Shown piece after piece: positions 1 to 19,386 of a stretch of DNA of 64,000 bases (positions are counted from its first letter, which is position 1; each line of letters opens with the position of its first letter). The stretch lies in NCBI GenBank assembly GCA_965218435.1, contig CBDCKW010000005.1:352001-416000 (forward strand). Direction: 5' to 3'. Both the position numbers and the translations under genes were made by a program. Source of the stretch: Truepera sp. Lineage in GTDB: Bacteria; Deinococcota; Deinococci; Deinococcales; Trueperaceae. Under the pieces are notes generated by a model that saw only the letters and a list, made by a program, of their open reading frames with translations, ran no database searches and was not told the origin of the DNA.

Positions 1-811
1 AGAGAAGCGTCATCTCGGGCGTCACGCTCCCTTCAGCGGCGGTCTGCAAAAACTGTGACTCGTAGACCATCACCAGCGGCGCTTTCCCCGGTCCCATCAC
101 CAGATAGTCTTCAAACGGTACCGCCGACGAGTATTCTTGAAACCCCTGCCGAAAGAATAGCGGTGAAATGAGGGGCATCACCGTACCCAGCTGCGCGTCG
201 TCTTGCACCACCGCGCCGCCGTTAGCGACGTAACTCATCAGTGACAGATACATCGCCGCCGAGTTGCTCCGCCGCACATCAGTCGAGGTGATCAATACGC
301 CCTTGTCCACATCATAGTTCGGGTTGTCCGCCAGCTCGCTCCAACGCTTTTTGGCCTCCATCAGCTTGAGCAGCGGCTGAAGCTCGAGGTAACGCACCTC
401 GCCCTCACGCCGCACCAGCCCATTGGCTTCTAACACGTCGGCAATCAGCGTCCACGACGCGACCGTCATCGGGGTAAAGAAAACATCGAATGAACTCTGC
501 ACGTCGCTCTCGCGGCGAATCTTTTCAGCGGCTGGGGACCCCGCCGGAAAGACAAAATCGTAATCCGATGCCTGATAATCGGTCGCAATCTGCCTCGAGC
601 CCGCCTTTTCGACCTCGACCTCGAGCCCGTTTTTGCGCAGCGCCGACTGCACCTGCTCATCGAGAAAAAAGTCCTCTTTTTCCGACCCGATAAGGCCCCG
701 CACCGTGATGACGCGGCGAGCACTGAGCTGACCGGTAATCGACACGTAGAGCCCAAGGCCGACCCCCGCGACAAGGAGGACGGTGAGCAGAGGCCCTAAA
801 AATCGTTTCAC
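1..811 (-). CDS. Membrane-anchored substrate-binding-domain protein, runs off the window edge
   Basis: Hand translation from GTG at 811 after an AGGAG RBS: MKRFLGPLLTVLLVAGVGLGLYV...GLIGSEKEDFF...TSTDVRRSNSAAMYL...GPGKAPLVMVYESQF, open to base 1. Not in the ORF track because it has no stop in the window. Confidence 0.65.
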   Translation of the reverse strand, partial: MKRFLGPLLTVLLVAGVGLGLYVSITGQLSARRVITVRGLIGSEKEDFFLDEQVQSALRKNGLEVEVEKAGSRQIATDYQASDYDFVFPAGSPAAEKIRRESDVQSSFDVFFTPMTVASWTLIADVLEANGLVRREGEVRYLELQPLLKLMEAKKRWSELADNPNYDVDKGVLITSTDVRRSNSAAMYLSLMSYVANGGAVVQDDAQLGTVMPLISPLFFRQGFQEYSSAVPFEDYLVMGPGKAPLVMVYESQFLQTAAEGSVTPEMTLL

Positions 812-1048
812 AGTGGTTGCTGGCTCCTATTCGCAAAAGACAAAGTAATCTAATAGTAGACCGAAACTACGTCAGAGGTATGTCAGAACTTTGCTTCCGG
901 GTGATGTCAGGTTCATGTAGTTGGGTAGCTGTCATGTGGGCGGCTCGAGCAAATACGCCAGCAAAAGGACCTCGGAGTGATAAACACTTTTCGGCACACG
1001 CTTTTTCACCTCACTACAGGTGGGTTCTATAAGTACGACATTCATAGT

Positions 1049-1077
1049 AAAAGGCCGGTAGCTTTCAGCTACCGGCC
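1049..1077 (-). terminator. Intrinsic terminator of the 1096..3621 gene
   Basis: GGCCGGTAGCT-TTC-AGCTACCGGCC 11-bp stem followed by a short U tract on the minus strand, just past the stop. Confidence 0.75.
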
Positions 1078-1095
1078 CAAAGGATCAAGGCAACA

Positions 1096-3621
1096 CTACT
1101 CGTCGTCGGCTAAAAACAGCACACTCTGAACCGGGTCGGTGGCAGCACTGCGAAAGCTGTTGATGGCCTCCGGCATCGCCAGCTCAGCGCCTTTGATCGC
1201 GCCCCACAAGATTTCGTTAAAGGTCTGTTCCTCAGCTCTTGAGAACTGGTCAGCTTCTTCATCTAGGTCTAGAGCCAGCGAGTCCTCGGCGCGGTAGGCG
1301 TCCGCTGGGTTCATTTCGCCCAGCGGCTGTTTTGGTGTAATTGCGGTGTACGGTGTCAGGTCAGGTGTATCGGTAAAGGCTGCAAACATCGGCGTGGCCT
1401 CGGCGTCGAACTGCGTCATCGGTGGCAAGCCGAGCATCAGCTCGAGCGTGCGTAAAAGCGAGACTGTCGAGTATTCGGTGTGATCCACGGTGCCACGTTT
1501 GACATAGGGCGAGATAGCGTAGCAAACGGTGCGGTGTGCGTCTACGTGGTCAGGGCCGTTCTGAGCGTCGTCTTCGATAACAAAAACTGCCGTACTCTTC
1601 CAATAGGGCGAGTTTGAGACGTGTTCGACAAGCCGCGCAAGCGCGAGGTCGTTGTCGGCCATCATCGCTTTAGGCGTCGGCATTTCAGGACGCGTCCCGG
1701 CGGTGTGATCGTTGGGTAAGCGGACGATCATCAGCTGCGGCAGGTTGTCTTGCGCCACGTATTTATCAAACTCACGTTTCCAGGCTTCGTAACGAGATTG
1801 GTCGGTGACCTCGAGGTTATACCCGGAGAAGTTCGGCGCGACATTGCCCTCAAGCGCGTTCTCGACCGAGCCGAAAGGTGCCGGTTCGACGTTAGGCGGC
1901 TCAGCCGAGGTAAATTCGCCGTAGACGCGGAAAGATACATTAGCTCTCGAGGCGAAATCCCATAAGTACCCACCTTCGGGAGCCGGGGCCGACGAGCCAC
2001 CCTCCCAATCATAAGCACGGTCGCGCCCGGAATAGCCGGTCGGCCAGGTTTTTTGTACATAGTCGGTAGCGACTGCGCCCACTGACCAGTTGTGCCCGTC
2101 CGGTGAGACTTCGGCGCTGACATAACAGTTGTCGAACAAGACAAACTGCTCAGCCAAGGCGTGATGGTTGGGCGCACTGTCCCGGCCGAAAAGCACCAAG
2201 CTCGGGTCGCCGTCACCTTGGGGTAAGTCGCCTAAAATCTGATCATAGGTACGGTTCTCTTTGATGACGTAAATCACGTGTTTGATCGGCGTTGGATCCC
2301 CCACACGTCGTGGGACAGCCCTGGCTTGCGTTTTCTTGGACGACCGGGTGAGCGTTTGCCTGGTCTCGTCGAAGCCGTTGTTTTGAACTACCTGGGCGGT
2401 GTGGCGGGTTAAAGTGTCCGCACCCGGCACAGGAATTACCGAGATTGTGCCTCGCGCCATGTTGCCGATGTACTGCTCATCGGGCGGGCTTTCGGCAAGG
2501 GTCGGATTGGCTCCCCTGGGGTTCGGCCCGGCCCCCAACCCTTTCATGTTCGTAACGTAGAGCCGCGTGCCGTCGTCTGACAGCGCCAGCGTGCTGGGAA
2601 ACCACGCCGTAGGGATAAGACCCTGCACCTCGAGCGTAGCCGTATCGACCACTGCAACGTCATTGTTGCCGCCGTTGGCGACGTAGAGCGTTTTGCCGTC
2701 TTTAGAAATCGTCAAGGCGTTCGGCATCGAGCCCATCGGCGCGTCCGGATACGGAGCCAGCTCGACTGTGCCCGTCACCTTGTCGGTCGCCGTATTGATG
2801 ACGCTTACGGTGTCGGAGTTTGTGTTCGTCACATAAAGCTGTTTTGCGCCTGGTGACAGCAAAAGGTCGGTAGCGTGTCCCCCCGTAGCGACGTGACCGG
2901 TGCGTTTTTGTTGGGCCACGTCAACGATGCTGACCCCGCCGCCGTTCCACTCCGAGACGTAGAGCTTGCTGCCATTTGGCGTAAGGGTAAGCTGATACGG
3001 CAACACCCCGATGTCTTCTTCGGAAGCGGGCGATGAGAGCCGGATACGTCCCTGCATTTTCCCGTTAGCCGTGTTGATAACGGCGACCGAATTGTCGAGG
3101 TTAAGGGCAGCGTAGAGCGTTTTGCCGTCTTCTGAAAGGGCCAAACCAGCAACAAACAAGTCGCCTTCGTCGTTATTATCGAGCATAATGGACTCACGTT
3201 CTTGAAGCCCTTGCTCACCAAGGTCGTAAACGCGAATCTTGTCGTTGGCTCCGGCTGAGGCGTAAACCTTTGAACCGTCTTGCGAAACGACGACGCCCAA
3301 AAAGAGTGCTTCGGGGGTAGCGTAAGGAATCTCCTGCACCACCTTATCGGTATAGGTATCGAAAAGCACCAAGCTCTGAACGCCCTGGCCGTTGTTCGAT
3401 ACGAGTAGGTAGCGACCGTCCGGGGTCGCGGTCATGCCCATCGGTCTGTCGCCAATTTCGACTTGCAAGCCTGCCGGGGTGAGCTGCCAGTGGTCGGGGG
3501 TTTCACCGGTGGCAACAGGGTTTGGCCCGACACGACCGGGGTCACTCACCATTTGAGCGCTGACGATGCCCAGCGCAGCTAAAAGTACTGTCAAATAAGC
3601 TTTCATCTCTACCTCTTTCAC
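1096..3621 (-). CDS. Secreted YVTN/YncE beta-propeller fused to a phosphoesterase (alkaline phosphatase superfamily) domain
   Basis: Signal peptide; repeated LYVxNxxxxxVSVIDT blades; IKHVIYVIKENRTYDQ, LPNDHTAG and EDDAQNGPDHVDAHR motifs. Confidence 0.85.
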   Translation of the reverse strand: MKEVEMKAYLTVLLAALGIVSAQMVSDPGRVGPNPVATGETPDHWQLTPAGLQVEIGDRPMGMTATPDGRYLLVSNNGQGVQSLVLFDTYTDKVVQEIPYATPEALFLGVVVSQDGSKVYASAGANDKIRVYDLGEQGLQERESIMLDNNDEGDLFVAGLALSEDGKTLYAALNLDNSVAVINTANGKMQGRIRLSSPASEEDIGVLPYQLTLTPNGSKLYVSEWNGGGVSIVDVAQQKRTGHVATGGHATDLLLSPGAKQLYVTNTNSDTVSVINTATDKVTGTVELAPYPDAPMGSMPNALTISKDGKTLYVANGGNNDVAVVDTATLEVQGLIPTAWFPSTLALSDDGTRLYVTNMKGLGAGPNPRGANPTLAESPPDEQYIGNMARGTISVIPVPGADTLTRHTAQVVQNNGFDETRQTLTRSSKKTQARAVPRRVGDPTPIKHVIYVIKENRTYDQILGDLPQGDGDPSLVLFGRDSAPNHHALAEQFVLFDNCYVSAEVSPDGHNWSVGAVATDYVQKTWPTGYSGRDRAYDWEGGSSAPAPEGGYLWDFASRANVSFRVYGEFTSAEPPNVEPAPFGSVENALEGNVAPNFSGYNLEVTDQSRYEAWKREFDKYVAQDNLPQLMIVRLPNDHTAGTRPEMPTPKAMMADNDLALARLVEHVSNSPYWKSTAVFVIEDDAQNGPDHVDAHRTVCYAISPYVKRGTVDHTEYSTVSLLRTLELMLGLPPMTQFDAEATPMFAAFTDTPDLTPYTAITPKQPLGEMNPADAYRAEDSLALDLDEEADQFSRAEEQTFNEILWGAIKGAELAMPEAINSFRSAATDPVQSVLFLADDE

Positions 3622-3891
3622 GTTGGCTTACCAAGTACGGCTGTCCGGACGAGTTCACCTTAGTGCCGCTACGTCAGATGAGCATCAGTTATGGAGGTTC
3701 TACTTCACTAAGAAAACACTTTGTGGTGTTCGTATGAAACTTTCCAAACGTTTTAAGCTAAGCTTTGAAGCTGCGGCCGCAGTTCAGTACAAATATAGCT
3801 ATGACTTCTAACGCCACGCTTTCTACTTTTGTTCTCAAACCTTAGTCAGCGAGAATCGCTCTCTGAACACGTACTACTTACAGCTGTAATG

Positions 3892-7079: not shown

Positions 7080-8018
7080 TCAAGTAGAAGTGAGACTCAA
7101 AACAGGATATTTGGTCCGACTCAGATGTCTAAAAAGCTCACGAGCGATATAGGTTTTCAGGATCCGTAGTGAAGCCCGCTGTGTCTTTCCACGAGCTTTA
7201 AGTTTTGCTAACAGTGCCCTGGTCCTTTTATCACAACGGCTTCTCGTCAGCGCAACGATGTGCAGCGCCCAATTCAAGCGACGGTGGCAACCGTAGTTGA
7301 GTTGCATCCGGCTATTTCTACCGCTGCCTCGTTCTACTGGAGCAGCGCCGCAGTAGCTGGCGAACTGGCCTTCGTTGGCGAACCGCCCAATATTGCCTAC
7401 TTCACCTAGGATGACGCTGGCCACCACGGATCCGACGCCTAAAAGCTCCAGCAGTGTAGGAGCAAAGGTCTTCACCATCATCTTCATCTGTGTGGACAAC
7501 TCGGCTAATTGACTCTCTAAAACTTGAATCACCTGCACTAAGGCAGAGCGAGCAGAGGAACCGCCGGCAAGGGCTTGCAACGCCATCTTGTTGGCTTTAA
7601 GTTGCTCGGATAGGCGGCGTTGTGTCCGGGTAAGGTCTTGAAACTCCCGCTGGGATTGGCTAGGTCGAAACACGGGCAGTTCAGGATTTGCTAGAAGCGC
7701 CCTGGCGGCATTTGAAGCGTCCACAACATCATTCTTCTTCCGGCTTAAACGAGCCCGGTATTGACTCGTGAGGTTCGGAGGAATGTGGTGGACGACCTCA
7801 CCGTGCTCGAGTAACGCGCTTACAAACGGCAAGATGAAACGGTTACCTGCGCCTTCGATAGCCCAACGACGCTTCACGAAAGGAAGCGCGAACTGGTGAA
7901 GTCGTGCCAAACCCGCGGCGTCATTCGAGACTGTCAAAGCTGTGAGCGTTACGCCGTTCTTGTCTAGGGCAGCTACGGTATGGCTGTCTGGATGCGGATC
8001 AAGACCTATCGTGATCAT
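7080..8018 (-). CDS. IS110-family DEDD recombinase/transposase
   Basis: IGLDPHPDSH, WAIEG, KKNDVVDA (DEDD); LGVGSVVA, FASYCGAAPVERGSG (Tnp-domain Ser). Confidence 0.93.
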   Translation of the reverse strand: MITIGLDPHPDSHTVAALDKNGVTLTALTVSNDAAGLARLHQFALPFVKRRWAIEGAGNRFILPFVSALLEHGEVVHHIPPNLTSQYRARLSRKKNDVVDASNAARALLANPELPVFRPSQSQREFQDLTRTQRRLSEQLKANKMALQALAGGSSARSALVQVIQVLESQLAELSTQMKMMVKTFAPTLLELLGVGSVVASVILGEVGNIGRFANEGQFASYCGAAPVERGSGRNSRMQLNYGCHRRLNWALHIVALTRSRCDKRTRALLAKLKARGKTQRASLRILKTYIARELFRHLSRTKYPVLSLTST

Positions 8019-8034
8019 GCGCTACCTCCTATGA

Positions 8035-8185
8035 TGAGGCAGGCACAGCGTACGCATGTCTGAACGGATCATGCCAACGTATCGGCACCCTGGTATCCGG
8101 CGATGCGCCGTGCCCCACTCATAGCGGGGTGTGCAAATCAAGTTGTGGCCATAAACGGCTGACGGAACCTGGGCAACACCCCATG
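8035..8185 (-). ncRNA. Putative IS110 bridge RNA 1 (ends approximate)
   Basis: Structured non-coding end with segments matching the element's flanks (GGTTCCGTC, reverse complement of TCAAGTTG) and its donor ends (ATACCAGG, reverse complement of TCTG). Confidence 0.8.
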
Positions 8186-8198
8186 CTTGTTATACAGA

Positions 8199-8372
8199 CG
8201 GAGCCCCCTGCCGCTTGCGCTCGCCACACTTCGGGGCCTGTACCCGGGGCAGGCCGAGTGGAACCTCATCATGGCTGGCGCAGTTATCACCGTTCTTCCA
8301 ACGATCCTTGTGTTCTTGTTTGCCCAACGTTGGGTGGTCGAAGGTGTGGCTGCTTCGGGGCTGAAGGGGTAG
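8199..8372 (+). pseudogene. 3' fragment of a carbohydrate ABC transporter permease
   Basis: LPLALATLRG...WNLIMAGAVITVLPTILVFLFAQRWVVEGVAASGLKG* is a typical MalG-type C-terminus; the 5' part is missing. Confidence 0.8.
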
Positions 8373-8629
8373 ACGTACCGTTCTCGCCCTATGCAGCTAC
8401 GGTGTGACTGTTTGGGTGGGGATCAAGACCAATGGCAATCATGCTGCCTTACATCTCATATGAGAAGGCGGACACGGCATGCGCACGTCTGAAGGGATCA
8501 AGCCTTATGGCACCCTGTTATCTGGCGATGCGCCGTACCCCACTTATGGGTGAGGGTATGCAGATCAAGTTATGGCCACACTGTCGGGGCTGACGCAACC
8601 CGGGCAAAACCCTCAGCTTGTTACACAGA
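8373..8629 (-). mobile_element. Truncated second IS110: intact non-coding left end plus about 24 transposase codons with a premature TAG
   Basis: From 8442: MIAIGLDPHPNSHTVAA*GENGTS versus MITIGLDPHPDSHTVAALDKNGVT in the full copy; upstream non-coding region homologous to 8019-8198. Confidence 0.85.
8465..8617 (-). ncRNA. Putative orphan IS110 bridge RNA 2 (ends approximate)
   Basis: Same scaffold as 8035-8185 with altered loops; guide GGTTGCGTC (8592-8600) is identical to its own flank plus core (8628-8636). Confidence 0.75.
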
Positions 8630-8702
8630 CGCAACCCATAAAGGTGCTGGGCATGCTCCACGTTAGGAGAGCGAACGGCGTACGGTCGCCGCGAGCCTCG
8701 AG

Positions 8703-9611
8703 TTACCGACCGGCGGGCACCACGATGCGAGCGCGGGCGCGGCGGCGTTTTCCCTCAGGGATAAGCAGCACGAAGTTGGAGAACCGGCTCTTGAAGACGT
8801 GCACCACGCATGGGACGGGGCCGTGGAGTCCCAGCAACGTCAGATCGGTGTCGACGTCTTCGAACGCGCCGCCTCTCGGACCGGCCAGGGGTTGGAGGAA
8901 GTCGACGCTCGCAGGCAGACCTTCGGGGCGCAGCCAGGCAGGGAAGGTGCGCGTGAACGCCGCCGACTCGTGCAGGCGCGTCACAGGGTAGTACGCGCCA
9001 ACGCTAGTGACGAGAGGGGTCGTGCCGAGAACCAGCATCGCGCAAGATTCGGGATGACGCTCGACGTAGCGGCGGAGGGTGGCGTGGACCGAGCCGCCGT
9101 ACACCCGGGACAGCTGAAGCGGCGTGCGCAACTCCAGCGAGAGATCCCGGATGTCACGGTCGAACCGTCCGCCTTGAAACATAACCTCGGACGCGAACCG
9201 GTTCGCCTCGGCCTCGAACAGGTCTTTCACGTCGTCGGAGAGCGTCGATTCATTGTCGAGGTGCAGCATGATGTCGCGTTGCCAGGGGAGAACCTTATGG
9301 CCGATCTCGTGCAGCGTGACGAAGTTCTGCTTGGCAGCGTTGACAGTGGTGTCGAGGTAGATGACGCGCTCGCGCAGGTCGACCATGCCCATGGCCTTGC
9401 GCAAAGCGGACGCGAGCAGCTTGTAGTTGCGCGTGAAGAACCCCTCGTGCGGCTCGGTCAGGTTGATGTCCTGGGAGACGACGAGTTCCGCGCAGGCGAG
9501 CAAGTCATCAATGGGGGTGGGAAGGCGGTCGCCGACGCCAGCGCGCTCCAGAAGCAGGCGGGCGTAGCGCGCGACCTCGTCCTGCTCAGCCAAGCTTTGC
9601 CTTACGGGCAC
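8703..9611 (-). CDS. ImmA/IrrE-family Zn metallopeptidase (CapP-like)
   Basis: NFVTLHEIGHKVLPW (HExxH) and FEAEANRFASE; overlaps the upstream HTH gene. Confidence 0.88.
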   Translation of the reverse strand: MPVRQSLAEQDEVARYARLLLERAGVGDRLPTPIDDLLACAELVVSQDINLTEPHEGFFTRNYKLLASALRKAMGMVDLRERVIYLDTTVNAAKQNFVTLHEIGHKVLPWQRDIMLHLDNESTLSDDVKDLFEAEANRFASEVMFQGGRFDRDIRDLSLELRTPLQLSRVYGGSVHATLRRYVERHPESCAMLVLGTTPLVTSVGAYYPVTRLHESAAFTRTFPAWLRPEGLPASVDFLQPLAGPRGGAFEDVDTDLTLLGLHGPVPCVVHVFKSRFSNFVLLIPEGKRRRARARIVVPAGR

Positions 9612-9969
9612 GCAGGAACGTCAAGTACTCGGCGAGCGCCTCTTCTTCTTCAAAAGTCAGGTTCTGCAGGGTGGACATCGCGGCACCGGCCAGTGAACGG
9701 TGTTGGTCGGCCTGCCTCTTCACGAGGTACCCGGCGGCCTGCATGAGCTGGTCGTAGTTTACTTGGTACAACTCGGCGAGCTTGTACAGCTTGTCGGGCG
9801 ACGGCTTCTCGATCCGTCCGGTCTCGACCTGGCTGAGATAGGCGTTGCTGATGCCCGTCGCTCGCTCGACGTCCTTGAGCGTAAACGCGTGCAGTTGCCG
9901 TAAGCGGCGTAGTTCGGCCCCGAGGACGTTCTCGGCGGCCGGGGTAACGGCTTCGGTCGTGGCCATCAT
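9586..9969 (-). CDS. XRE-family HTH repressor (CapH-like)
   Basis: LRRLRQ...TLKDVERATGISNAYLSQVETG HTH; C-terminal LTFEEEEALAEYLTFLR helix of SinR/CapH type. Confidence 0.88.
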   Translation of the reverse strand: MMATTEAVTPAAENVLGAELRRLRQLHAFTLKDVERATGISNAYLSQVETGRIEKPSPDKLYKLAELYQVNYDQLMQAAGYLVKRQADQHRSLAGAAMSTLQNLTFEEEEALAEYLTFLRARKAKLG

Positions 9970-10155
9970 CTTCCTCCTCGTTGCTGACGCTGACGCGCGG
10001 CACCCTTCTGACCGCGTCGAGCGGCACGGAAGGGGTAGGCACCGTGGACAGAACTGCCGGAAGCGACGGCGTCGTGCATATACGATACACCAAGCGCGGG
10101 CGGGAATTATGTCCCCTTTGCCCTGCTAGTCCTCATCCAGTTCTAAGCAGGGCTA

Positions 10156-10190
10156 TTGCATCTAAGTAGACTTAGATTTATACTTGAGTC
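10156..10190 (+). promoter_or_regulatory. Sigma70 promoter of the Ubl operon with a palindromic operator in the spacer; leaderless
   Basis: TTGCAT (10156-10161), 17 bp, TATACT (10179-10184), ATG at 10191; ATCTAAG-TAGA-CTTAGAT at 10160-10177. Confidence 0.75.
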
Positions 10191-10475
10191 ATGAGCATCC
10201 ACCGCGAGCAGGACCAGAAGCCCCGCGACCCCAAGCCCCGACCCCACGACGTAACTATCAACGTCAACGAGATGCCTGTGACGCTCCCCGGTCCCAAAGC
10301 CACGGGCGCGAACCTCAAGTGCGCGGCGATTGCGCAAGGCGTGCAGATGGACATGGATTTCATCCTCCAAGAGGAACTGGAGAACGGCCGCACTCAGCAG
10401 ATCGGCGATGACGACGTCATCACGATCAACAAAAACTCGCAATTCCTCGCCGTCGCGCCGGACGACAACTCGTAA
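10191..10475 (+). CDS. Ubiquitin-like (multiubiquitin-type beta-grasp) protein, BubA-like
   Basis: VTINVNEMPVTLPGPKATGANLKCAAI...IGDDDVITINKNSQFLAVAPDDNS; first gene of an operon with E2-like and JAB-E1 genes. Confidence 0.75.
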   Translation: MSIHREQDQKPRDPKPRPHDVTINVNEMPVTLPGPKATGANLKCAAIAQGVQMDMDFILQEELENGRTQQIGDDDVITINKNSQFLAVAPDDNS

Positions 10476-10477
10476 CC

Positions 10478-10891
10478 ATGCCCCTCACCGCCCCCGTTGA
10501 CAAAGCCATTGCCGAATTGCGCCAAGCCTTCCCGGACGCCCAGTTGGGCGTCCGGGAGGACGGAAGCGGGGGAGCGTACGTCCTCCTTGACCCGGTCGAC
10601 CCGGGCTCCGCGTACGCGCAGCGGGAGACCTGGGTCGGCTTCCACATCGCCTTCAACTACCCGTACGCGGACGTCTACCCGCACTTCGTTCGCCCCGACC
10701 TCACGCGCATCGACGGCCGGCCCATAGTGAACCCGGGGATGGGCATCCAGGCAGTCAACTGGCCCGCTTGGGACAACCGCGCGGCGCTTCAGCTGTCGCG
10801 CAGGTCTAACCGCCTCAACCCCCGCACCGACACGGCGACCACCAAGCTCTTGAAGGTGCTCGACTGGCTCGCGAAGCACGGAGGAGGCTGA
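10478..10891 (+). CDS. Prokaryotic E2/UBC-like protein lacking cysteine, BubB-like
   Basis: VGFHIAFNYPYADVYPHFVRPDL resembles the UBC FxxxxxYP motif; QLSRRS; operon position. Confidence 0.7.
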   Translation: MPLTAPVDKAIAELRQAFPDAQLGVREDGSGGAYVLLDPVDPGSAYAQRETWVGFHIAFNYPYADVYPHFVRPDLTRIDGRPIVNPGMGIQAVNWPAWDNRAALQLSRRSNRLNPRTDTATTKLLKVLDWLAKHGGG

Positions 10892-10893
10892 CC

Positions 10894-12339
10894 ATACGCA
10901 GCCCCGTCACCCTTACCCTGACCGAGGCGCAGCACACTGCTCTCCTCGCCCACCTGTTCCCTGGCGACGACGACGAGCACGGTGCTGTCATCGCCGCGAG
11001 CGTCGTCATCACCGAGCGGGGCACGCGCCTGATCGGTCGCGACGTGTTCCTCGCCGAGGACGGCACCGACTACGTGCCCGGCCAGCGCGGCTACCGCATG
11101 CTCACCTCGAGCTTCGTCAGCGAGAAGATCCGGTACTGCCGCGACCAGAAGCTCGCTTACTTCGCCGTACACAACCACGGCGGGGACCGCAGCGTCCACT
11201 TCAGCAGCGATGACTTCGCTTCACACGAACGCGGCTACCCCGCCCTCTCGAAGATTTCCCGCGGTCAGATCGTGGGCGGCCTCGTCTTCGCCAAGCGCGC
11301 CGTCGCCGGCGACTTGTGGCTGCCTAACGGCAGCCGGGTGGAGCTGGAGAGCGCACGCCTGCTCGGCCCGTCAGTGCGGACGATCTACCCGGAGCCGCCC
11401 GTCGCCGCCCGTGACGCCCGCTTCGACCGCCAGGCGCGCCTGTTCGGCGACGAGGGCCAGCGGCAGCTAAGCGCCATGAAGGTCGGCGTGATCGGCGCGG
11501 GCGGTGCGGGCTCACTCCTCGTGGAGTACCTCGCGCGCCTCGGCGTCGGGCACCTCGTCGTCGCCGACTTCGACCGGGTAGACCTCACCAATGTCCCGCG
11601 CATCACTGGTGCCACCTACGGCGACGCGCGCGCCGTCCTCACCAACGAGCGGCGTCCCCACTGGATGCGCCAACTCGGCAAGCGGTTTGCTACCCGCAAA
11701 ATCGATGTGATGCGCCGTATCGCGCGCCGCGCGAACCCGCTCGTGACCTTCGAAGGGATTTTCGGCGACGTCTGCGACGACCCCGTCGCGCGGCGCTTCA
11801 CCGACTGCGACTACCTCTTCCTCGCGGCGGACTCGTTCGGCGCGAGGCTGGTGTTCAACGCGATTGTCCATCAGTACCTGATCCCGGGCGTGCAGGTCGG
11901 CGCGAAGGTCCCGGTGGACAAGACCAGCGGCGACGTGGGCGAGGTGGTGGTCGTCGTTCGCCCGGTCCGCCCCGGCGAGAACTGTCTTTGGTGCACCGGG
12001 CTGATCCCCGCCGCGAAACTGACGGAGGAGGCCACCGCCCCCGAGCAGCGCGCGTCCCAGCGGTACGTGGACGACCCGACCGTGCACGCCCCTAGCGTCA
12101 TCACCCTAAACGCCGTCGCCGCGAGCGCCGCCGCCGACGGCTTCCTGTTCACCATGCTAGGCCTGACGCGAGACAAGGCGACACGGGAGTACATGAGCTA
12201 CCGGTCCCGCAGGCGTACTTGGAAAATCGACGCACCCCGACGGGATGACGACTGCCCCTGGTGCAGCCCGCGCGGCACCCTCGGGCGTGGGGACGCCGAG
12301 AGTCTGCCAACCCGTCCTTTACGGAAGCGCGAGAAGTGA
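10894..12339 (+). CDS. JAB/JAMM peptidase fused to a ThiF/E1 adenylyltransferase (BubCD-like); start probably the non-canonical ATA at 10894
   Basis: Frame is open upstream of 11044 (HLFPGDDDEHGAV); HNHGGDRSVHFSSDD (HxH..S..D); GAGGAGS, DFDRVDLTNVPR, AADSFGAR, CLWC and CPWC. Confidence 0.88.
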   Translation: MRSPVTLTLTEAQHTALLAHLFPGDDDEHGAVIAASVVITERGTRLIGRDVFLAEDGTDYVPGQRGYRMLTSSFVSEKIRYCRDQKLAYFAVHNHGGDRSVHFSSDDFASHERGYPALSKISRGQIVGGLVFAKRAVAGDLWLPNGSRVELESARLLGPSVRTIYPEPPVAARDARFDRQARLFGDEGQRQLSAMKVGVIGAGGAGSLLVEYLARLGVGHLVVADFDRVDLTNVPRITGATYGDARAVLTNERRPHWMRQLGKRFATRKIDVMRRIARRANPLVTFEGIFGDVCDDPVARRFTDCDYLFLAADSFGARLVFNAIVHQYLIPGVQVGAKVPVDKTSGDVGEVVVVVRPVRPGENCLWCTGLIPAAKLTEEATAPEQRASQRYVDDPTVHAPSVITLNAVAASAAADGFLFTMLGLTRDKATREYMSYRSRRRTWKIDAPRRDDDCPWCSPRGTLGRGDAESLPTRPLRKREK

Positions 12340-12412
12340 CGAGGACGCGACTGCAACGTAATGCAGGAACCCGAACAAGGGGGTCAGAAGCGGATGTCTG
12401 AGCCGAAGCAAC

Positions 12413-12645
12413 TTAACCACTACCGACTCGAAGTCGGTAGGTTGAGGAGCTAGGCTGGAAGCCGGAAGCTACTCTAAAGAGATATTCTCCTCACCGTTTT
12501 GCTTATGAGCGTCGTAGTGGGTGTTGATGTATTCGTCTATCATCTCATCAGTGACGTTCCCGCTCGTGGCGCTGAAGTAACCCCGTGCCCAGAAGTGCTG
12601 CCCCCAGTACCGCTTCCTTAGCTCCGGAAACTCCTGCTGTACTTT
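12413..12645 (-). mobile_element. IS200/IS605 tnpA 3' remnant with right-end hairpin
   Basis: QEFPELRKRYWGQHFWARGYFSATSGNVTDEMIDEYI; hairpin CTACCGACT-CGA-AGTCGGTAG at 12420-12440. Confidence 0.8.
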
Positions 12646-13120
12646 CCGCGACCTCGGGCCGTTCACGTTTAGGACAGTACTTCGGTGTGCTCACAGCATA
12701 CAGTCCTTCGCGTCGCATTAACCGTTTGACCCTGCCTAAAGAGCAGGTTACTTGCTGTTTCTTAAGCTCGGCGTGAACCCAAGGGCTCCCATAACGCTCC
12801 TTATGCTTGGCGAATACCGCTTGGACTTGCACCAGCAGCGTGGCATTTGCCTTTTCGCGTCCACTGGGGGGCCGTAGCTGACGTTTGCGCTGATGGTAGT
12901 AACTGCTCTTCGGCACCCCCAGCACGTCACACAAGACGCTGACCGGAAACTCGCGCTGGTGTGCCTCGATAAACGTACTTTTCAGGTCGAGTGTCTCGCA
13001 AAATAAATGGCGGCCTTTTTTACAATCGCCAACTCCATTTCGAGCCGCTTCACCTTATCCTGCGACCGCCTCAGCTCGGCTTCCTCAGCCGTTGGTTGCG
13101 CCCGCTTGTGTCCTGGTGTG
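12646..13120 (-). mobile_element. IS3-family internal remnant (orfA end and orfB start), related to the element at 52901-54195
   Basis: [20 protein letters not shown] and LCDVLGVPKSSYY...RYGSP..HAEL...RVKRLMRREGL closely match the later IS3 copy. Confidence 0.85.
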
Positions 13121-13441
13121 CTGAAGGTCATCTTTCCCGAGGCGCTCGACGTCATAGGCGTCGCCATGGGTAACTCGAGTGACAACGCCTCCGAAGACCT
13201 CCAGTACTTCGACGCGCGCATGTGGACTGATGAGGATCAGCGCGACGCCGAGGCGCTGCAGCGCGAAACGGGCTTCTTGACCGACCTGAGGCGTAGCGAG
13301 ACCGTTGTCAAGACCTACCCGGACGTCTTACCTCGAAGTAGGTTGGTCGCAACAACCTTTGGTAAGGGCGGCCAGCGCAACAAACCTTGCCCGTGCGGTA
13401 GCGGTCGCAAGTACAAACATTGTCATGGGTACTTGACGTGA
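13121..13441 (+). pseudogene. C-terminal fragment of a SEC-C motif protein
   Basis: [20 protein letters not shown]; the 5' part is replaced by IS3 sequence. Confidence 0.7.
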
Positions 13442-13535
13442 GACAAGCAGAGTTTCTGAACACAGATAAGAAATGAGTTTTGCAAAACCTCAAGAGCAGC
13501 TTTCGGCGATTACAAGCTGTCTACCTCAGGTAAAG

Positions 13536-14424
13536 TAGACCTATTGCGAAAGTCATGTTTCAAGACCAAGCTCGAAATTGTAGAAGCCGGAGATGAGGTT
13601 AAAGCGTAAGCCGAAGCGTTTGCGGCGGCCTCTATAACGCTTGGAAAGGATTTTGAAGACCTTGAGTTTGCAGTTGACGTGTTCAATGCTTAGGCGCAGT
13701 TTAGCTAGTGCCTTGTTGTAGCGCTTCTCGTCGGGTTCGAGTTCCCCGCCTTTACGCTTTTTACAGGGTAGTTCGCTGTTCTGATGAAGCGTTTGTAACC
13801 CTTGATAGCCCGAATCAGCCAGCCAGAAGCACGTGGGGTGCAAATGCACTCGGCTCGCCTGAAAGAGCTTGAAGTCATGCGTCTTACCCTTGCTGAAGCT
13901 TGTGCAGATGATTTTACGACTCTGCCAGTCAACGACGACTTGTGCTTTTAACGTATGGCGCTTCTTCTTCCCACTGTAGAACTGCCGCTGTTTTTTTTCG
14001 GCCTCTCGATCGGTGTTTCAGTTGCGTCTACAACCACAAAGCTTAGTTCTGCACCACCCTCCTGCACTCGCCGCTTACCTGAAAGGCTGAAAACCTCGGC
14101 CTTGCTTAAGGTGTCCTCTACTCGACGGATAATGCGGAAAGTGCTAGAAGTGTTGAGCCTATAGGTATGAGCGATATGGAAGTAGGTGCGGTGCTCGCGC
14201 AAATACATGAGGGTCATTAACACCTGATCTTCCAAGCTTAACTTACTCGGCCTACCTGATTTACGCTTCTTGAGCCCCGTCTCTCGCAAAATCTCAACCA
14301 TCACCGCAAACGTCTCGGCCTTCACGCCTGTCAGCCGCTTGAACTCCTCAGCTGCCAACTCTTTTGTCTGTTCATAGAACATTCTTTACTTCAGCACTTA
14401 AACCCTACTTTCGCAATAGGTCTA
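13536..14424 (-). mobile_element. IS5-family element (ISL2-like), two ORFs joined by a probable -1 frameshift
   Basis: 18-bp perfect inverted repeat TAGACCTATTGCGAAAGT at both ends; orfA 13948..14382 (HTH_Tnp_4, VVDATETPIERPKK) with an A8 run at about 13991-13998; orfB LADSGYQG...RLSIEHVN. Confidence 0.9.
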
Positions 14425-14501
14425 CTGAAATTAGTAATTTTCAAAAAATATGTTAAGAGGTTATCGAGGTGCCAAACGCTAAGGCCTTGTAAAATAGTTA
14501 A

Positions 14502-15083: not shown

Positions 15084-15943
15084 CTACAGAAAACGTTCGG
15101 GCTTATCTATTTAGTGTCAAAGTGAATTGGTCGGATCGAGATTCGGAGCCGGTCATGGTCAAGCTCGCCGAGGCTAAGGCGGAGGCAGTCGCGGCAAGTA
15201 AACAAGATGTCGCTAAAGAAGTGTGGTGTCTCGAAACGGTTTTAAAGATACAGGACGGGTACATAGAGGCTTTCAGATTAATGAAGGCTCAAGATTTCTA
15301 CAAAGCGTGATGTGTCCTGGAACAAGTCGAGCTCGCGCTTTTAAGATTGTACCGACACTTTCGGGGCTCCGCCGACCACTACCAGCTCAATTTCATTTAC
15401 GCGCACACAGAACGGTTTCAATCCATTTTTCCGTACAGAATTTTCGCCAGCCCAGAATACTTGAAGACGGAGGTTCGCTGCGGCATCTGTGACGCTATCA
15501 TCACACCGAGAAACTCATGTGACCATCGTAAGGGCGAAATCTATGACGGAGAGATATGCGTACACCACGTGACACAAGCGCAACTACTCAACATCGCGAT
15601 GGTAACCTCTCCGAGCCAGCGGTATTCAGTCGTGTTTGCAACCGACAACCAGGGTAATAGAACAGATTTCGACTACTCGGTTCTAGACTACGTTTTGCGA
15701 GGGCTTAACTCGCCTTTCCACGGGTGGCGTTGCACCCGGACGGTCACCGACGTGCCGCATGAGCTTTACAGAGGAGTCGGTCGTAATCAAGATTGCCCGT
15801 GCGGCTCGGGACGCAAGTATAAACACTGCTGCTTAATGAAGGCAGGGGTCACCCGACCTCATATAGAGATTCAATACGACATACCACCCGACACTGATAT
15901 GCCCGAACAGATGTTTATAGGTTTTAGGAGGAATAACCCTTAG
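15077..15943 (+). pseudogene. Zn-finger / SEC-C motif protein with one in-frame TGA at 15308-15310
   Basis: ORFs 15077..15310 and 15347..15943 share a frame (FYKA*CVLEQVE); CGIC...CDH...C and [18 protein letters not shown]. Confidence 0.75.
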
Positions 15944-15957
15944 AGAACCACGGCGGT

Positions 15958-16983
15958 TTAGCCGACGCTATCCCCTAACGCCTCTTGCGCCTTTCTCGCC
16001 CGCTCCGAGGCTTTACGTGAGGTCACCTTGCTGTAACGCATCGTAGTGGTGAGGCTGTTGTGACCGAAGAGTGCCTGAGTCTCCAAGGCCCCCACCTGTT
16101 CTTGCATCACAACCCCAAAGGTGTGTCGGAAGGCGTGAACGCCTTTATAGCCGTTCGGTGTCCCCTCAAACGGGTTGACGCCAAACGCCTTAAGACACAT
16201 GCGTTTGATCCTAGCTCTAAGCCCAGCTGCTTGATACGGTGCCCAGGCTTTCGCGTAGTAGCGCATCAACACATGGTCGCCTGCGTGCGGCACGTCGCTC
16301 ATGGCTTTACCGGTGGCGGTAGCGAGCGGCACCAACCGGACTTTTTTACCCTTGCCGTGAACCCGGATCAGCCGCTCGCGAAAGTCGATGTTAGCCCACT
16401 TAAGCGTGACGATTTCCTCGATACGGAGGCCTGAAAGAACCGCTAAGAGAATCGCGACTTTCGAAACCGGATCGTCGTAGGTGTCGCAGGCGTGGACGAG
16501 TTCCTTGACCGTGTCGAGGCCGTACTCGCTGCGTTTCTCCTCGGGCTTGACCGGGTCGGGCCTAATCATCACCTTCTCGAAAGGGTTCTCGAGTTCGAAG
16601 CCGCACCACTGTAAAGCCTGATAGAAACGCCTAGCTGCTGCCGCACGGAGCTGCACGGTGGCGGGAGACTTGGGCTTGACCTCTTCACTACCTTGCTCGA
16701 GCTCCCGTACATAGGTCTGGGCTTCGTCGGGAGAGACCCGAAGTATATCTGCGCCTCCTATATAGATAAGGTAATCGAGGACGCCGCGCCGGTATGCTCG
16801 TAAGGTGTGCTGAGAGATACTCGTGCCCTTTTTACCCTTGAACTGCAAATACGCTAATGTCAGCAGCCAGAAGTCGTCGTGGTTCTCGGCTTGGATTGCC
16901 TTGGCCGCTCTGAGTTTGCGTTCGCCCACTTCGAGTGCTGACCAGTCTTTCCAGGTGTCGGGCGCGTAGACGAGGTTAGTCAT
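15958..16983 (-). CDS. Tyrosine recombinase/integrase
   Basis: SGLRIEE, GKGKK, HAFRH, FGH, TMRY give a full catalytic set; ATG at 16983 overlaps the PIN stop (TGATG). Confidence 0.9.
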   Translation of the reverse strand: MTNLVYAPDTWKDWSALEVGERKLRAAKAIQAENHDDFWLLTLAYLQFKGKKGTSISQHTLRAYRRGVLDYLIYIGGADILRVSPDEAQTYVRELEQGSEEVKPKSPATVQLRAAAARRFYQALQWCGFELENPFEKVMIRPDPVKPEEKRSEYGLDTVKELVHACDTYDDPVSKVAILLAVLSGLRIEEIVTLKWANIDFRERLIRVHGKGKKVRLVPLATATGKAMSDVPHAGDHVLMRYYAKAWAPYQAAGLRARIKRMCLKAFGVNPFEGTPNGYKGVHAFRHTFGVVMQEQVGALETQALFGHNSLTTTMRYSKVTSRKASERARKAQEALGDSVG

Positions 16984-17363
16984 CAGCGGATGGCCGTAAT
17001 CTTGAGCTCTAGAGCCACATTTGTCCAAATACCCTCGGCGGTATAGACTTCCCGGTTCGTCTCGAGCCCCAAGGCTAAGCAAGCCCGGTCGCCGAGCGAA
17101 AGGCCGTAAGCTTTCGTGTCTGGGTAGAGTGCGGCCGCACGCTCGGCGTGTTCAGCACTAAACGGCACGATGCTAACCCCTAAACCACCAAAGAGCTGCC
17201 TGAGGTGTAAGGTGTCGCCAGCACGTGCCGCGACCTTTTGCATGACCTCCGACCAGTTGACGCTGCTCACCAAACTACCCCGCAGGGCGGCGCGAGCCTT
17301 ATCGGCTCCCGGTTCACGGAAAGCAACGGCCAACAAGCTCGAGGCGTCATGCACCACGCTCAC
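16983..17363 (-). CDS. vapC: PIN-domain VapC toxin
   Basis: VVHDASSLLA, SSVNWSEV, GLSLGDRACLALG. Confidence 0.9.
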   Translation of the reverse strand: MSVVHDASSLLAVAFREPGADKARAALRGSLVSSVNWSEVMQKVAARAGDTLHLRQLFGGLGVSIVPFSAEHAERAAALYPDTKAYGLSLGDRACLALGLETNREVYTAEGIWTNVALELKITAIR

Positions 17364-17797: not shown

Positions 17798-18052
17798 ATG
17801 AGCACAATTCTTAAGTTAGGTCAAAACGGCCGCATGATTATACCCGCCGAGTTAAGACACAATCTCGAGCTTAAGGAAGATGACGAGCTACTGGTCACAG
17901 TCGAGGGTAAGCGGCTGGTACTAGAGACTGAAGCCGCACTGCTCGAGCGTCTCTACGCTACCGTAGGTGAACCGCCCGAAGGCGAACTGGTAAGCGACGA
18001 GCTCATACGCGAACGCCGTGAAGAAGCCGAACGCGAAACGGCCGACCAGTGA
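17798..18052 (+). CDS. AbrB/MazE/SpoVT-family antitoxin (second copy)
   Basis: MSTILKLGQNGRMIIPAELRHNLELKEDDELLV; TATAAT upstream. Confidence 0.88.
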   Translation: MSTILKLGQNGRMIIPAELRHNLELKEDDELLVTVEGKRLVLETEAALLERLYATVGEPPEGELVSDELIRERREEAERETADQ

Positions 18053-18429
18053 GCGTGGTACATGACGCCTCGAGCCTGTTGGCCGTTGCCTTCCGAGAAC
18101 CAGGCGGCGAGGTGGCGCGGGCTGCACTCAGGGGCAGCCTAGTCAGCAGCGTCAACTGGAGTGAGGTGATCCAGAAGGTGCAGGCTCGAGGTAAGGACAC
18201 CAGGCAACTCGCTCAGCTTTATATCGGCTTGGGGGTCACCATCGTGCCATTCGGTGTCGAGACCGCCGAACGCTCAGCGTCCCTCTACGGTGAAACTCGA
18301 GCCTTTGGATTGTCGTTAGGTGACCGGGCGTGCCTGGCGCTGGGGCTCGAGACCGGTCGTGAGGTCTACACCGCCGACCGACCCTGGACCGAGATCCCCC
18401 TAGAGATTAAGGTCACTGCGATCCGCTGA
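18049..18429 (+). CDS. vapC: PIN-domain VapC toxin (second copy)
   Basis: Paralogue of 16983..17363 with the same motifs. Confidence 0.9.
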   Translation: MSVVHDASSLLAVAFREPGGEVARAALRGSLVSSVNWSEVIQKVQARGKDTRQLAQLYIGLGVTIVPFGVETAERSASLYGETRAFGLSLGDRACLALGLETGREVYTADRPWTEIPLEIKVTAIR

Positions 18430-19386
18430 TGAGCGACCTCTAAAGCGATCCAGAGCGGGGAGCACGACGACCTCTGGCTGATGACCCTGGCGTACCTGCA
18501 ATTCAAGGGACGTAAAGGCACCAGCATCAGCCCCCACACCTTACGGGCGTACCGACGTGGCGTAGTCGATTACCTTATATATATAGGAGGCTCCGACATC
18601 CTCAGGGTCTCCCCCGACGAAGCCCAGACCTACGTCCGGATACTCGAGCAGGGCAGCGACGAGGTCCAGCCCAGATCACCGGCGACGGTTCAGTTACGCT
18701 CGGTCGCCGCCAGGCGCTTCTACCAGGCGCTGGCATGGTGCGGCTTCGAGCTCGACAACCCTTTCGAGAAGGTGATGATCCAGCCCGACCCGGTCAAACC
18801 GCACGAGAAACGCAGTGAGTACGGGCTCGACACCGTCAAGGAACTCGTCCACGCCTGCGACACCTTTGAAGACCCCATCGCCAAGATAGCCATCCTGCTG
18901 GCTGTTCTCTCCGGACTGCGCATCGAGGAGATCGCTACGCTCGAGTGGGGCGACATCGACTTCAGGGAACGCTTGATAAGCGTGCGGGGTAAGGGTAAGA
19001 AGATACGGCTCGTCCCGCTCGACACGGTTATTGGCAAAGCGGTAAGTGAGGTGCCGCATACCGGCAAGCAGGTGCTGATGCGCTACTACCGTAAGAGCTG
19101 GGCACCTTACACTACGGCGGGTCTCAGAGCGAAGATCAGACAGCTCTGCTTAAGGGCATTCGGGATTAACCCTTTCAGCCAGCAACCCAACGGCTATAAG
19201 GGCGTGCACGCTTTCCGGCACACCTTCGGCGTCATCATGCAGGAGCAGGTCGGTGCGCTGGAGACGCAAGCCCTCCTAGGCCATGAGAGCCTCACCACCA
19301 CCATGCGCTACAGCAAGGTCACCTCTCGTAAAGCTTCGGAGCGAGCGAGAAAGGCTCAGGAGGCTCTGGGGAAAAGCGTGGAGTGA
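18429..19386 (+). pseudogene. Tyrosine recombinase (second copy) with a 68-bp frameshifting 5' deletion; may restart at 18481
   Basis: The coupled ATG at 18429 reads MSDL*; 23 codons of the left copy are replaced by 1 nt; the rest is intact (SGLRIEE, HAFRH, TMRY). Confidence 0.8.

Follow-up and report, generated by a model that had tools for sequence, protein, structure and literature searches.

What kind of machine is encoded by the five genes at positions 8703-12339 of a 64-kb stretch of Truepera sp. DNA (GCA_965218435.1, contig CBDCKW010000005.1, positions 352,001 to 416,000), referred to as the window herein? In this block, a regulator pair diverges from three genes for a ubiquitin-like protein (Ubl), an E2-like protein, and a fusion of a JAB peptidase with an E1 domain (JAB-E1), the components of bacterial ubiquitination-like (Bub) systems. 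Our listing of open reading frames (ORFs) and family scans confirmed all five genes where an earlier note on this sequence had placed them (Table 1). The two regulator ORFs overlap by 26 nt and the other three genes form a tight operon with gaps of 2 nt each. As the same note had stated, no E3 or separate effector gene lies within the block, and we found no DUF6527 gene there. On balance, we favor the reading that a horizontally acquired CapH/CapP-type switch is joined here to a Bub-related Ubl conjugation machine that lacks BubE, the DUF6527 protein. The cassette is not a canonical Bub operon.

Table 1. Features of the cassette, its flanks, and a protein encoded beside related cassettes (window positions unless a locus is named)
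Feature	Position	Strand	Evidence
M78 zinc peptidase, CapP-like, 302 aa, HEIGH motif (HExxH)	8703-9611	-	Pfam Peptidase_M78 8.2e-08; PADLOC capP 9.9e-17
XRE-family helix-turn-helix (HTH) protein, CapH-like putative repressor, 127 aa	9586-9969	-	HTH_31 6.7e-13, HTH_3 5.6e-12; PADLOC capH 5.2e-10, residues 13-117
Divergent intergenic region, 221 bp, candidate control region	9970-10190		Sequence reading
Ubl, 94 aa	10191-10475	+	Pfam Multi_ubiq 3.9e-06
E2-like, 137 aa, Prok-E2_E type, cysteine-free	10478-10891	+	UBC fold by model
JAB/JAMM peptidase-E1 fusion, 481 aa if read from ATA 10894	10894-12339	+	ThiF 5e-32
IS110-family transposase (left flank; IS, insertion sequence)	7083-8018	-	Pfam DEDD_Tnp_IS110/Transposase_20
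Second, partial copy of the 5' end of the IS110 element (left flank; element span 7080-8547)	8378-8547		Direct repeats D1, D4, 78-90% identity
IS200 Y1 fragment (right flank)	12469-12663		Pfam Y1_Tnp
IS3-type HTH_21 fragment (right flank)	12551-12934		Pfam HTH_21
DDE_Tnp_4 element (right flank)	13534-14426		Pfam DDE_Tnp_4, HTH_Tnp_4
Cluster c5 protein, examples	L001:7397-8998	-	
	L003:3160-4632	+	
	9 further loci		

The largest protein ties the operon to the Bub family, as the earlier note had proposed. JAB-E1 matched Citrobacter BubCD (PDB 9ea4) at E = 9.1e-22 over residues 7-421 with low overall identity, and the next-best matches were MoeB, TcdA, and UBA5 at 1e-06 to 1e-08. The JAB domain extends up to ~11390 and is followed by the E1 adenylation domain. 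With residues counted from the codon at 10891 (one less when counted from the ATA at 10894), we found the JAMM residues E29, H94, H96, S105, and D108 unchanged in all 39 aligned sequences. The same is true of R180, the GxGGxG motif, D226, C365/C368, and Y392, while C455/C458 are near-invariant, being present in at least 90%. Tyr392 (12064-12066) lies in the crossover loop, and its counterpart in the BubCD alignment is the Tyr of R-G-Y-I. The two CxxC pairs are the only conserved Cys residues of the protein, with no conserved Cys otherwise in the crossover loop, and, by comparison with MoeB and UBA5, we take them to form a structural zinc site.

For the two small proteins, predicted structures were compared as well. 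When the window's proteins were scanned against Pfam, NCBIfam, and PADLOC, the E2 gave zero matches in all three and the Ubl gave zero in NCBIfam and PADLOC; phmmer searches against the PDB returned nothing useful for either. The AlphaFold2 (AF2) model of the E2 was built from 35 sequences, namely, the window protein and 34 of 36 relatives (L010 was omitted for an in-frame stop in the coordinates used and L020 as a precaution). It has a UBC fold with a predicted local distance difference test (pLDDT) score of 92. Its top Foldseek match was Citrobacter BubB (9eae_C; E = 1.7e-05, template modeling (TM) scores 0.69/0.73, 21% identity), with canonical E2 and UEV proteins ranking next, and the E2 homologue of the related locus L012 matched Pfam Prok-E2_E at 1.6e-09. 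The Ubl model is a β-grasp domain (pLDDT 81) with a low confidence, disordered stretch at residues 1-19; its top Foldseek matches were multi-ubiquitin (BubA) proteins of E. coli ZDHYS365 and Citrobacter, and then ubiquitin-like domains. The β-grasp and UBC folds, on whose absence the earlier note would have dropped its claim, were thus both borne out in predicted models.

Across the 35 E2 sequences, residues G32, P62, Y67, P68, S107, R108, and K123 are invariant and no Cys is conserved, the window protein having none at all. Ser107 (codon 10796-10798) sits in Q-L-S-R-R-S-N, and the motif to be set against Q-R-W-S-R-H-R-S-W-N-P of BubB is Q-I-S-R-R-S-N-x-x-N-P. A search of 1.84 billion representatives (50% clustering) with an E2 profile yielded 327 proteins at E ≤ 1e-3, of which 228 reached E ≤ 1e-10. 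Among the 150 matches listed, most are 125-140 aa, 124 are at least 120 aa, and 97 of those 124 bear the motif. S-R-H occurs in none of these 97, with S-R-R in 63, S-R-K in 11, and other forms in 23; the third place is R, or K/S/A/V.

The Ubl tail is just as uniform. The window Ubl ends in A-P-D-D-N-S with Ser94 as the last residue, and the pattern D-[DEH]-[NDS]-S was found across the alignment, the final Ser being present in 37 of 37 sequences. The protein ends directly at this Ser in 36, and L041 runs on with G-G-F-I. All nine database homologues end in D-D-N-S. The same tail appears inside longer proteins, as in 9 of the 13 listed E2 matches of at least 200 aa a Ubl is fused to the E2 and the junction reads D-D-N-S, D-E-A-S, or D-E-S-S. 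Read from its sequence, the Ubl is encoded already pre-cleaved, with a free C-terminal Ser.

These features recur well beyond the window. A scan of one genome per species recovered 41 loci that encode relatives of JAB-E1 (42-64% identity); these are spread over Acidobacteriota, Nitrospirota, Chloroflexota, Actinomycetota, Cyanobacteria, Pseudomonadota, Planctomycetota, and other phyla. Separate Ubl, E2, and JAB-E1 genes stand in the window's order at 36 of the 41; of the remaining five, four are cut by contig ends and one (L029) has no detected Ubl. PF20137 (DUF6527, BubE) gave no match at E ≤ 1 anywhere in the window's genome, which is 100% complete, and none inside or beside the cassette at any of the 41 loci. 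Eight of the 41 cassette-bearing genomes do carry PF20137 matches (seven above the cut-off), always elsewhere and without overlapping the locus, and three of these matches have a JAB-E1 or E1 protein beside them whose identity to that of the window is only 24-28%. For instance, one cassette-bearing genome also contains a canonical Type I operon (L060). Its Ubl-E2 fusion (254 aa) carries Q-Q-W-S-R-H-R and has Gly in the linker, and it is accompanied by a JAB-E1 of 469 aa and a Cys-rich DUF6527 ORF of 116 aa. We read the cassette, on its sequence, as a member of a coherent, widespread clade that is Bub-like, BubE-less, and Ser-terminal.

A second, divergent Bub-like cassette lies on the same 685-kb contig as the window (G000:C5:147368-150602; loci L044, L055, and L062). 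Its Ubl (97 aa, Multi_ubiq) likewise has Ser as the last residue (…T-P-T-P-V-S). Next to it are a Prok-E2_E protein of 125 aa (3.7e-10) and a JAB-E1 of 466 aa (BubCD E = 1e-20), followed on the same strand by a fused HTH-M78 regulator of 367 aa, in a genome with no DUF6527.

How far, then, does the cassette depart from described systems? In Type I Bub, according to the available part of the preprint, a BubAB Ubl-E2 fusion is cut by the JAB after a conserved Gly; BubCD joins JAB to E1, requires Tyr370 in the crossover loop, and has no catalytic Cys; and the E2 site consists of Ser333, His335, and Asp299 (10.1101/2024.11.21.623953). BubE is described there as part of "all Bub operons," the operons having been collected via DUF6527, and Table S1 includes Type I operons with split Ubl and E2, each row examined having DUF6527 (10.1101/2024.11.21.623953). 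The window cassette shares with Type I the JAB-E1 fusion with its JAMM residues and crossover Tyr, the Multi_ubiq β-grasp Ubl, the Prok-E2_E-type UBC fold with an invariant Ser, the lack of an E3, and frequent CapH+CapP neighbors. In contrast, the window clade has no BubE, its Ubl ends in an invariant Ser where that of Bub ends in a conserved Gly, and its E2 carries S-R-R in place of S-R-H. In the window itself, Ubl and E2 are separate genes and the E1 keeps two CxxC pairs that Citrobacter BubCD lacks at the aligned positions. Since neither BubE nor a Gly terminus was found and the E2 site differs, we do not regard the cassette as canonical Type I. The Bub identity proposed in the earlier note therefore stands for folds and families, with matches to BubA, BubB, and BubCD, and does not extend to BubE, the terminal Gly, or the S-x-H site.

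Other systems were compared in the same way, their descriptions being taken from the available parts of the sources. Type II Bub also uses a cysteine-free Tyr/Ser relay and a Multi_ubiq Ubl, and the best match of our Ubl model was the E. coli ZDHYS365 protein, whereas Type II has an E2-E1 fusion, typically no JAB, and always BubE. Bil (BilABCD) resembles the cassette in its bacterial Ubl or E1/E2/JAB conjugation logic and its mobile or defense contexts; it differs in that its JAB is separate and its E1, built of IAD-AAD-CYS domains, uses thioester chemistry, whereas the window encodes a single adenylation domain fused to JAB and an E2 without Cys. Cap2/Cap3 of Type II cyclic-oligonucleotide-based antiphage signaling systems (CBASS) follow the E1/E2/JAB logic as well. 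However, these conjugate a CD-NTase, which is absent here, and the PADLOC E1-E2 matches were weak and confined to the nucleotide-binding loop.

On present evidence, the cassette would work like Type I Bub; we infer every chemical step, its inducibility, and its biological role from Bub biochemistry and from CapH/CapP. The Ubl would be made "mature" with a free C-terminal Ser94, and the E1 domain of JAB-E1 would adenylate the Ser94 carboxylate. The Ubl would then pass as an oxyester to the crossover-loop Tyr and, again as an oxyester, to Ser107 of the cysteine-free E2, before ending on a lysine of some target. Lastly, the JAB, the only peptidase of the conjugation machine, would remove conjugates, and in the fused Ubl-E2 relatives it would cut after Ser. 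A deconjugating role is suggested because the split-gene members need no processing and yet keep an invariant JAMM site, with no other peptidase at hand.

An alternative is that no protein is conjugated at all. The E1 could instead activate the Ubl tail for sulfur transfer, as ThiF/MoeB do, or for peptide modification, as MccB does, with the E2 as an inert RWD-like module. The Ubl terminus that is not Gly and the E2 that has no Cys are what such a system might show, the E1 matches that come next are to the ThiF and MoeB families, and E2s of the 6e type were read as inactive in the available part of an earlier survey (Iyer et al. 2006). However, the E1 and E2 of Bub type, although devoid of catalytic Cys, do conjugate through Tyr and Ser according to the available part of the preprint (10.1101/2024.11.21.623953), and both residues are invariant here. 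A conserved JAMM, together with precursors in which the same tail joins Ubl to E2, fits processing and deconjugation, and sulfurtransferase or biosynthetic neighbors are not conserved among the related loci. We consider this alternative very improbable.

Several points nonetheless weigh against our preferred reading, a CapH/CapP-type switch with a BubE-less conjugation machine. We know of no E1-type adenylation of a Ubl C-terminal Ser. The sequence link between the E2 and BubB is weak (profile E = 0.42), with the Ser motifs one residue out of register, and in this weak alignment the BubB Asp299 position falls on the invariant Tyr67. The residues that accompany the E2 Ser appear to differ from those of both Bub types, and the oxyester chemistry is for this reason an extrapolation. 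IS debris begins 130 bp beyond the 3' end of the operon, such that this copy may have lost a downstream gene, and its full-length JAB-E1 may be poorly made or may be made from GTG 11044 without the JAMM Glu. Finally, Bub operons themselves gave no phage protection in the available parts of the reports (10.1101/2024.11.21.623953; 2026 EMBO J paper). A predicted complex of JAB-E1 with Ubl residues 18-94, run without controls, scored 0.24 against a mark of 0.32 and counts for neither side.

The JAB-E1 start codon bears directly on whether this copy works. The frame is open from 10810 and contains no ATG, GTG, or TTG before 11044. Homology places the start at ~10894, where the window has ATA and homologues that are 90% and 87% identical (481 aa) have Met; the N termini read M-R-G-P-F-T-L-T-L in the homologues and I-R-S-P-V-T-L-T-L in the window. 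At 10889-10896, CC separates the E2 stop TGA from the ATA, and a strong sequence, GGAGGAGG, ends 6 nt upstream of the ATA. In the public gene call, the protein begins 150 nt downstream, at GTG 11044, and has 431 aa without the JAMM Glu. Either the start is a rare ATA, possibly coupled to the E2 stop 2 nt before it, or the ATA is a lesion, and the function of this copy is uncertain because of it.

Such a lesion would suit a decaying remnant, in which a Bub-type operon lost a downstream gene to IS elements, had its JAB-E1 start mutated, and no longer functions here. The IS fragments that begin 130 bp after the E1 stop, in a hotspot of IS elements and recombinases, are consistent with this, as is the ATA where close homologues have Met. 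On the other hand, none of the three ORFs is broken, and the catalytic residues invariant in the family are all kept. No downstream loss is needed to account for the lack of DUF6527 since that lack is the rule for the clade, and with GGAGGAGG and the E2 stop so close to the ATA, coupled initiation is conceivable. Contigs from two runs of one sample, probably the source, carry the same letters, with 0 differences over 8600-11415, although these are not independent of the assembly. Weighing these points, we find a remnant unlikely.

The conserved departures from Bub may define a type of their own. The clade is not listed in the DUF6527-seeded catalogue, to the extent that this is given in the available part of Table S1 of the preprint, as distinct from the journal version (Ye et al. 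2026). Since Bub systems were catalogued only from DUF6527 operons, a BubE-less clade would escape that census. It is nearly an even call, in our estimate, that these loci represent an uncatalogued third Bub-like type: widespread, as the 327 E2 representatives suggest, free of BubE, conjugating via a C-terminal Ser, with the JAB taking over deconjugation and with regulators that pair an HTH with M78 or, in a subclade, with c5, a putative Cys/His peptidase. If true, this would be the first ubiquitin-like modifier family with a non-glycine activated terminus. The Ser terminus and the S-R-R site would test the generality of Tyr/Ser oxyester ubiquitination chemistry, and a pre-cleaved Ubl beside a fully conserved JAB would set processing by the peptidase apart from deconjugation. 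Being compact (three genes and two regulators) and conserved across many phyla, the system is practical to reconstitute. The purpose of Bub-type systems is a question that this cassette does not answer.

What controls the operon? An XRE-type HTH protein and an M78 HExxH peptidase adjoin its putative promoter, and capH and capP are their best PADLOC models, in agreement with the CapH/CapP-type pair named in the earlier note. The pair also resembles the homologous DdrO/IrrE in comprising a small XRE-type HTH protein and an adjoining M78 HExxH peptidase, divergent from the regulated operon. By analogy with characterized CapH+CapP, CapP would cleave CapH after DNA damage and the neighboring operon would be derepressed. 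Within the intergenic region, we found a perfect 8+8 palindrome, ATCTAAGT-AG-ACTTAGAT, at 10160-10177, between TTGCAT (10157-10162) and TATACT (10179-10184). The latter ends 6 nt before the Ubl ATG, which has no Shine-Dalgarno sequence. A promoter scan of this region returned 0 sites by its criteria. We propose that the palindrome is a candidate operator at which CapH could occlude a leaderless Ubl promoter.

Regulators of the same kinds accompany the related loci. Among the 35 with at least 600 bp of upstream DNA (L018, with less, was omitted), a Pfam scan of 109 ORFs placed an XRE-type HTH just upstream at 28 and an M78 peptidase at 18, as a separate gene in 13 and fused to the HTH in five. 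ORF calling in high-GC loci produced antisense artefacts in the neighbor clustering, and cluster c1 mixes these with real HTH genes; the counts were therefore taken from the Pfam scan only. Neither CapH nor CapP of the window had a tblastn match in the 41 related loci, where the regulators belong to the same Pfam families only, so the pairing recurs with different versions. Another partner is the conserved, 490-533-aa protein of cluster c5, which has no Pfam family and occurs at 11 of the 41 loci. None of the 10 c5 loci scanned for regulators had an M78 match. Its Cys and His motifs are reminiscent of papain-like or C39 peptidases, and its Atlas matches were "hypothetical protein" clusters with a weak Peptidase_C39_2 lead. 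A tblastn search did not find the c5 protein in the window's genome.

Related loci have further neighbors of note. Large proteins of ~1040 aa (cluster c7) are encoded near the cassettes of L030, L031, and L032. Upstream of the cassette in L024, an ORF of 1145 aa (338-3775, minus strand) has, by eye, an HExxH motif (HEIAH) and then the look of a UvrD-type helicase.

Where did the cassette come from, and what might it do for its host? Block 8600-12400 has 65.5% GC as compared with 57.0% in the 4.8-Mb genome, a value reached by only 0.06% of the 4777 genome windows of 3.8 kb each. A full-length JAB-E1 homologue was absent from all 40 related genomes searched (five from the same genus, 19 from the same family, and 16 from the same order), which gave one further match to the E1 part only. 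Because the cassette is missing from these relatives and is a GC outlier, composition and distribution both indicate that the 3.7-kb module was acquired horizontally. The GC-rich block and the bounding IS debris described in the earlier note were confirmed (IS110 on the left; IS200, IS3-type, and DDE_Tnp_4 on the right), and the horizontal acquisition that it inferred is supported. Similar contigs, ~85-97% alike, occur in freshwater and sediment metagenomes of two other studies, and one of these spans 10556-12345 with 77 differences.

The same note had assumed a probable Deinococcota host that already uses an IrrE/DdrO switch. The phylum holds because the nearest named relatives by RpoB are uncultured Truepera (93%), and then metagenome-assembled genomes of Trueperaceae and Deinococcota (81-83%). 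The resident switch was not borne out. DdrB was not found in this complete genome, although a control search found it in D. radiodurans, and the six M78 matches are mostly fusions or ArdC-like: three are HTH-M78 fusions, one is ArdC-like, one is a protein of 193 aa with an HTH neighbor, and one is the CapP described here. Of these, the 193-aa protein and CapP, on the same replicon, were the sole stand-alone M78 proteins found.

The anti-phage function suggested in the earlier note does not go beyond a hypothesis. We lean against such a role while regarding it as possible, and think it quite probable that the cassette serves another stress response or does something not yet recognized. A more specific version of the latter, a DNA-damage or general stress device or one serving a mobile element, has in our estimate a little less than an even chance. 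The Bub authors, who saw no phage protection, raise a stress response themselves in the available parts of their reports (10.1101/2024.11.21.623953; 2026 EMBO J paper). IS elements, recombinases, and PIN toxins lie nearby, and no recognized defense system was found in the window. In the other direction, CapH+CapP-type regulators are reported mainly beside defense operons in the available part of the preprint (10.1101/2024.11.21.623953), and dCTP-deaminase-like genes (Pfam DCD) lie directly upstream of the regulator at two related loci (L016:4184-4804, plus strand, 3e-26; L034:3176-4297, plus strand, 1.5e-31).

The flanks hold several smaller features of their own. The DDE_Tnp_4 element is bounded by 27-nt inverted repeats at 13534-13560 and 14400-14426 (repeat I1). 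Among the IS elements, two plus-strand ORFs (13007-13441 and 15347-15943) each terminate in a SEC-C motif (Pfam 1e-09 and 6e-09), and a 47-nt repeat is common to both; two tyrosine recombinases (15961-17082 and 18481-19383) and a PIN toxin (18049-18426) adjoin them. On the left, a short plus-strand ORF (8187-8372) between the IS110-like ends reads, by eye, as the C-terminal end of a sugar ABC-transporter permease, like a gene fragment left by insertions.

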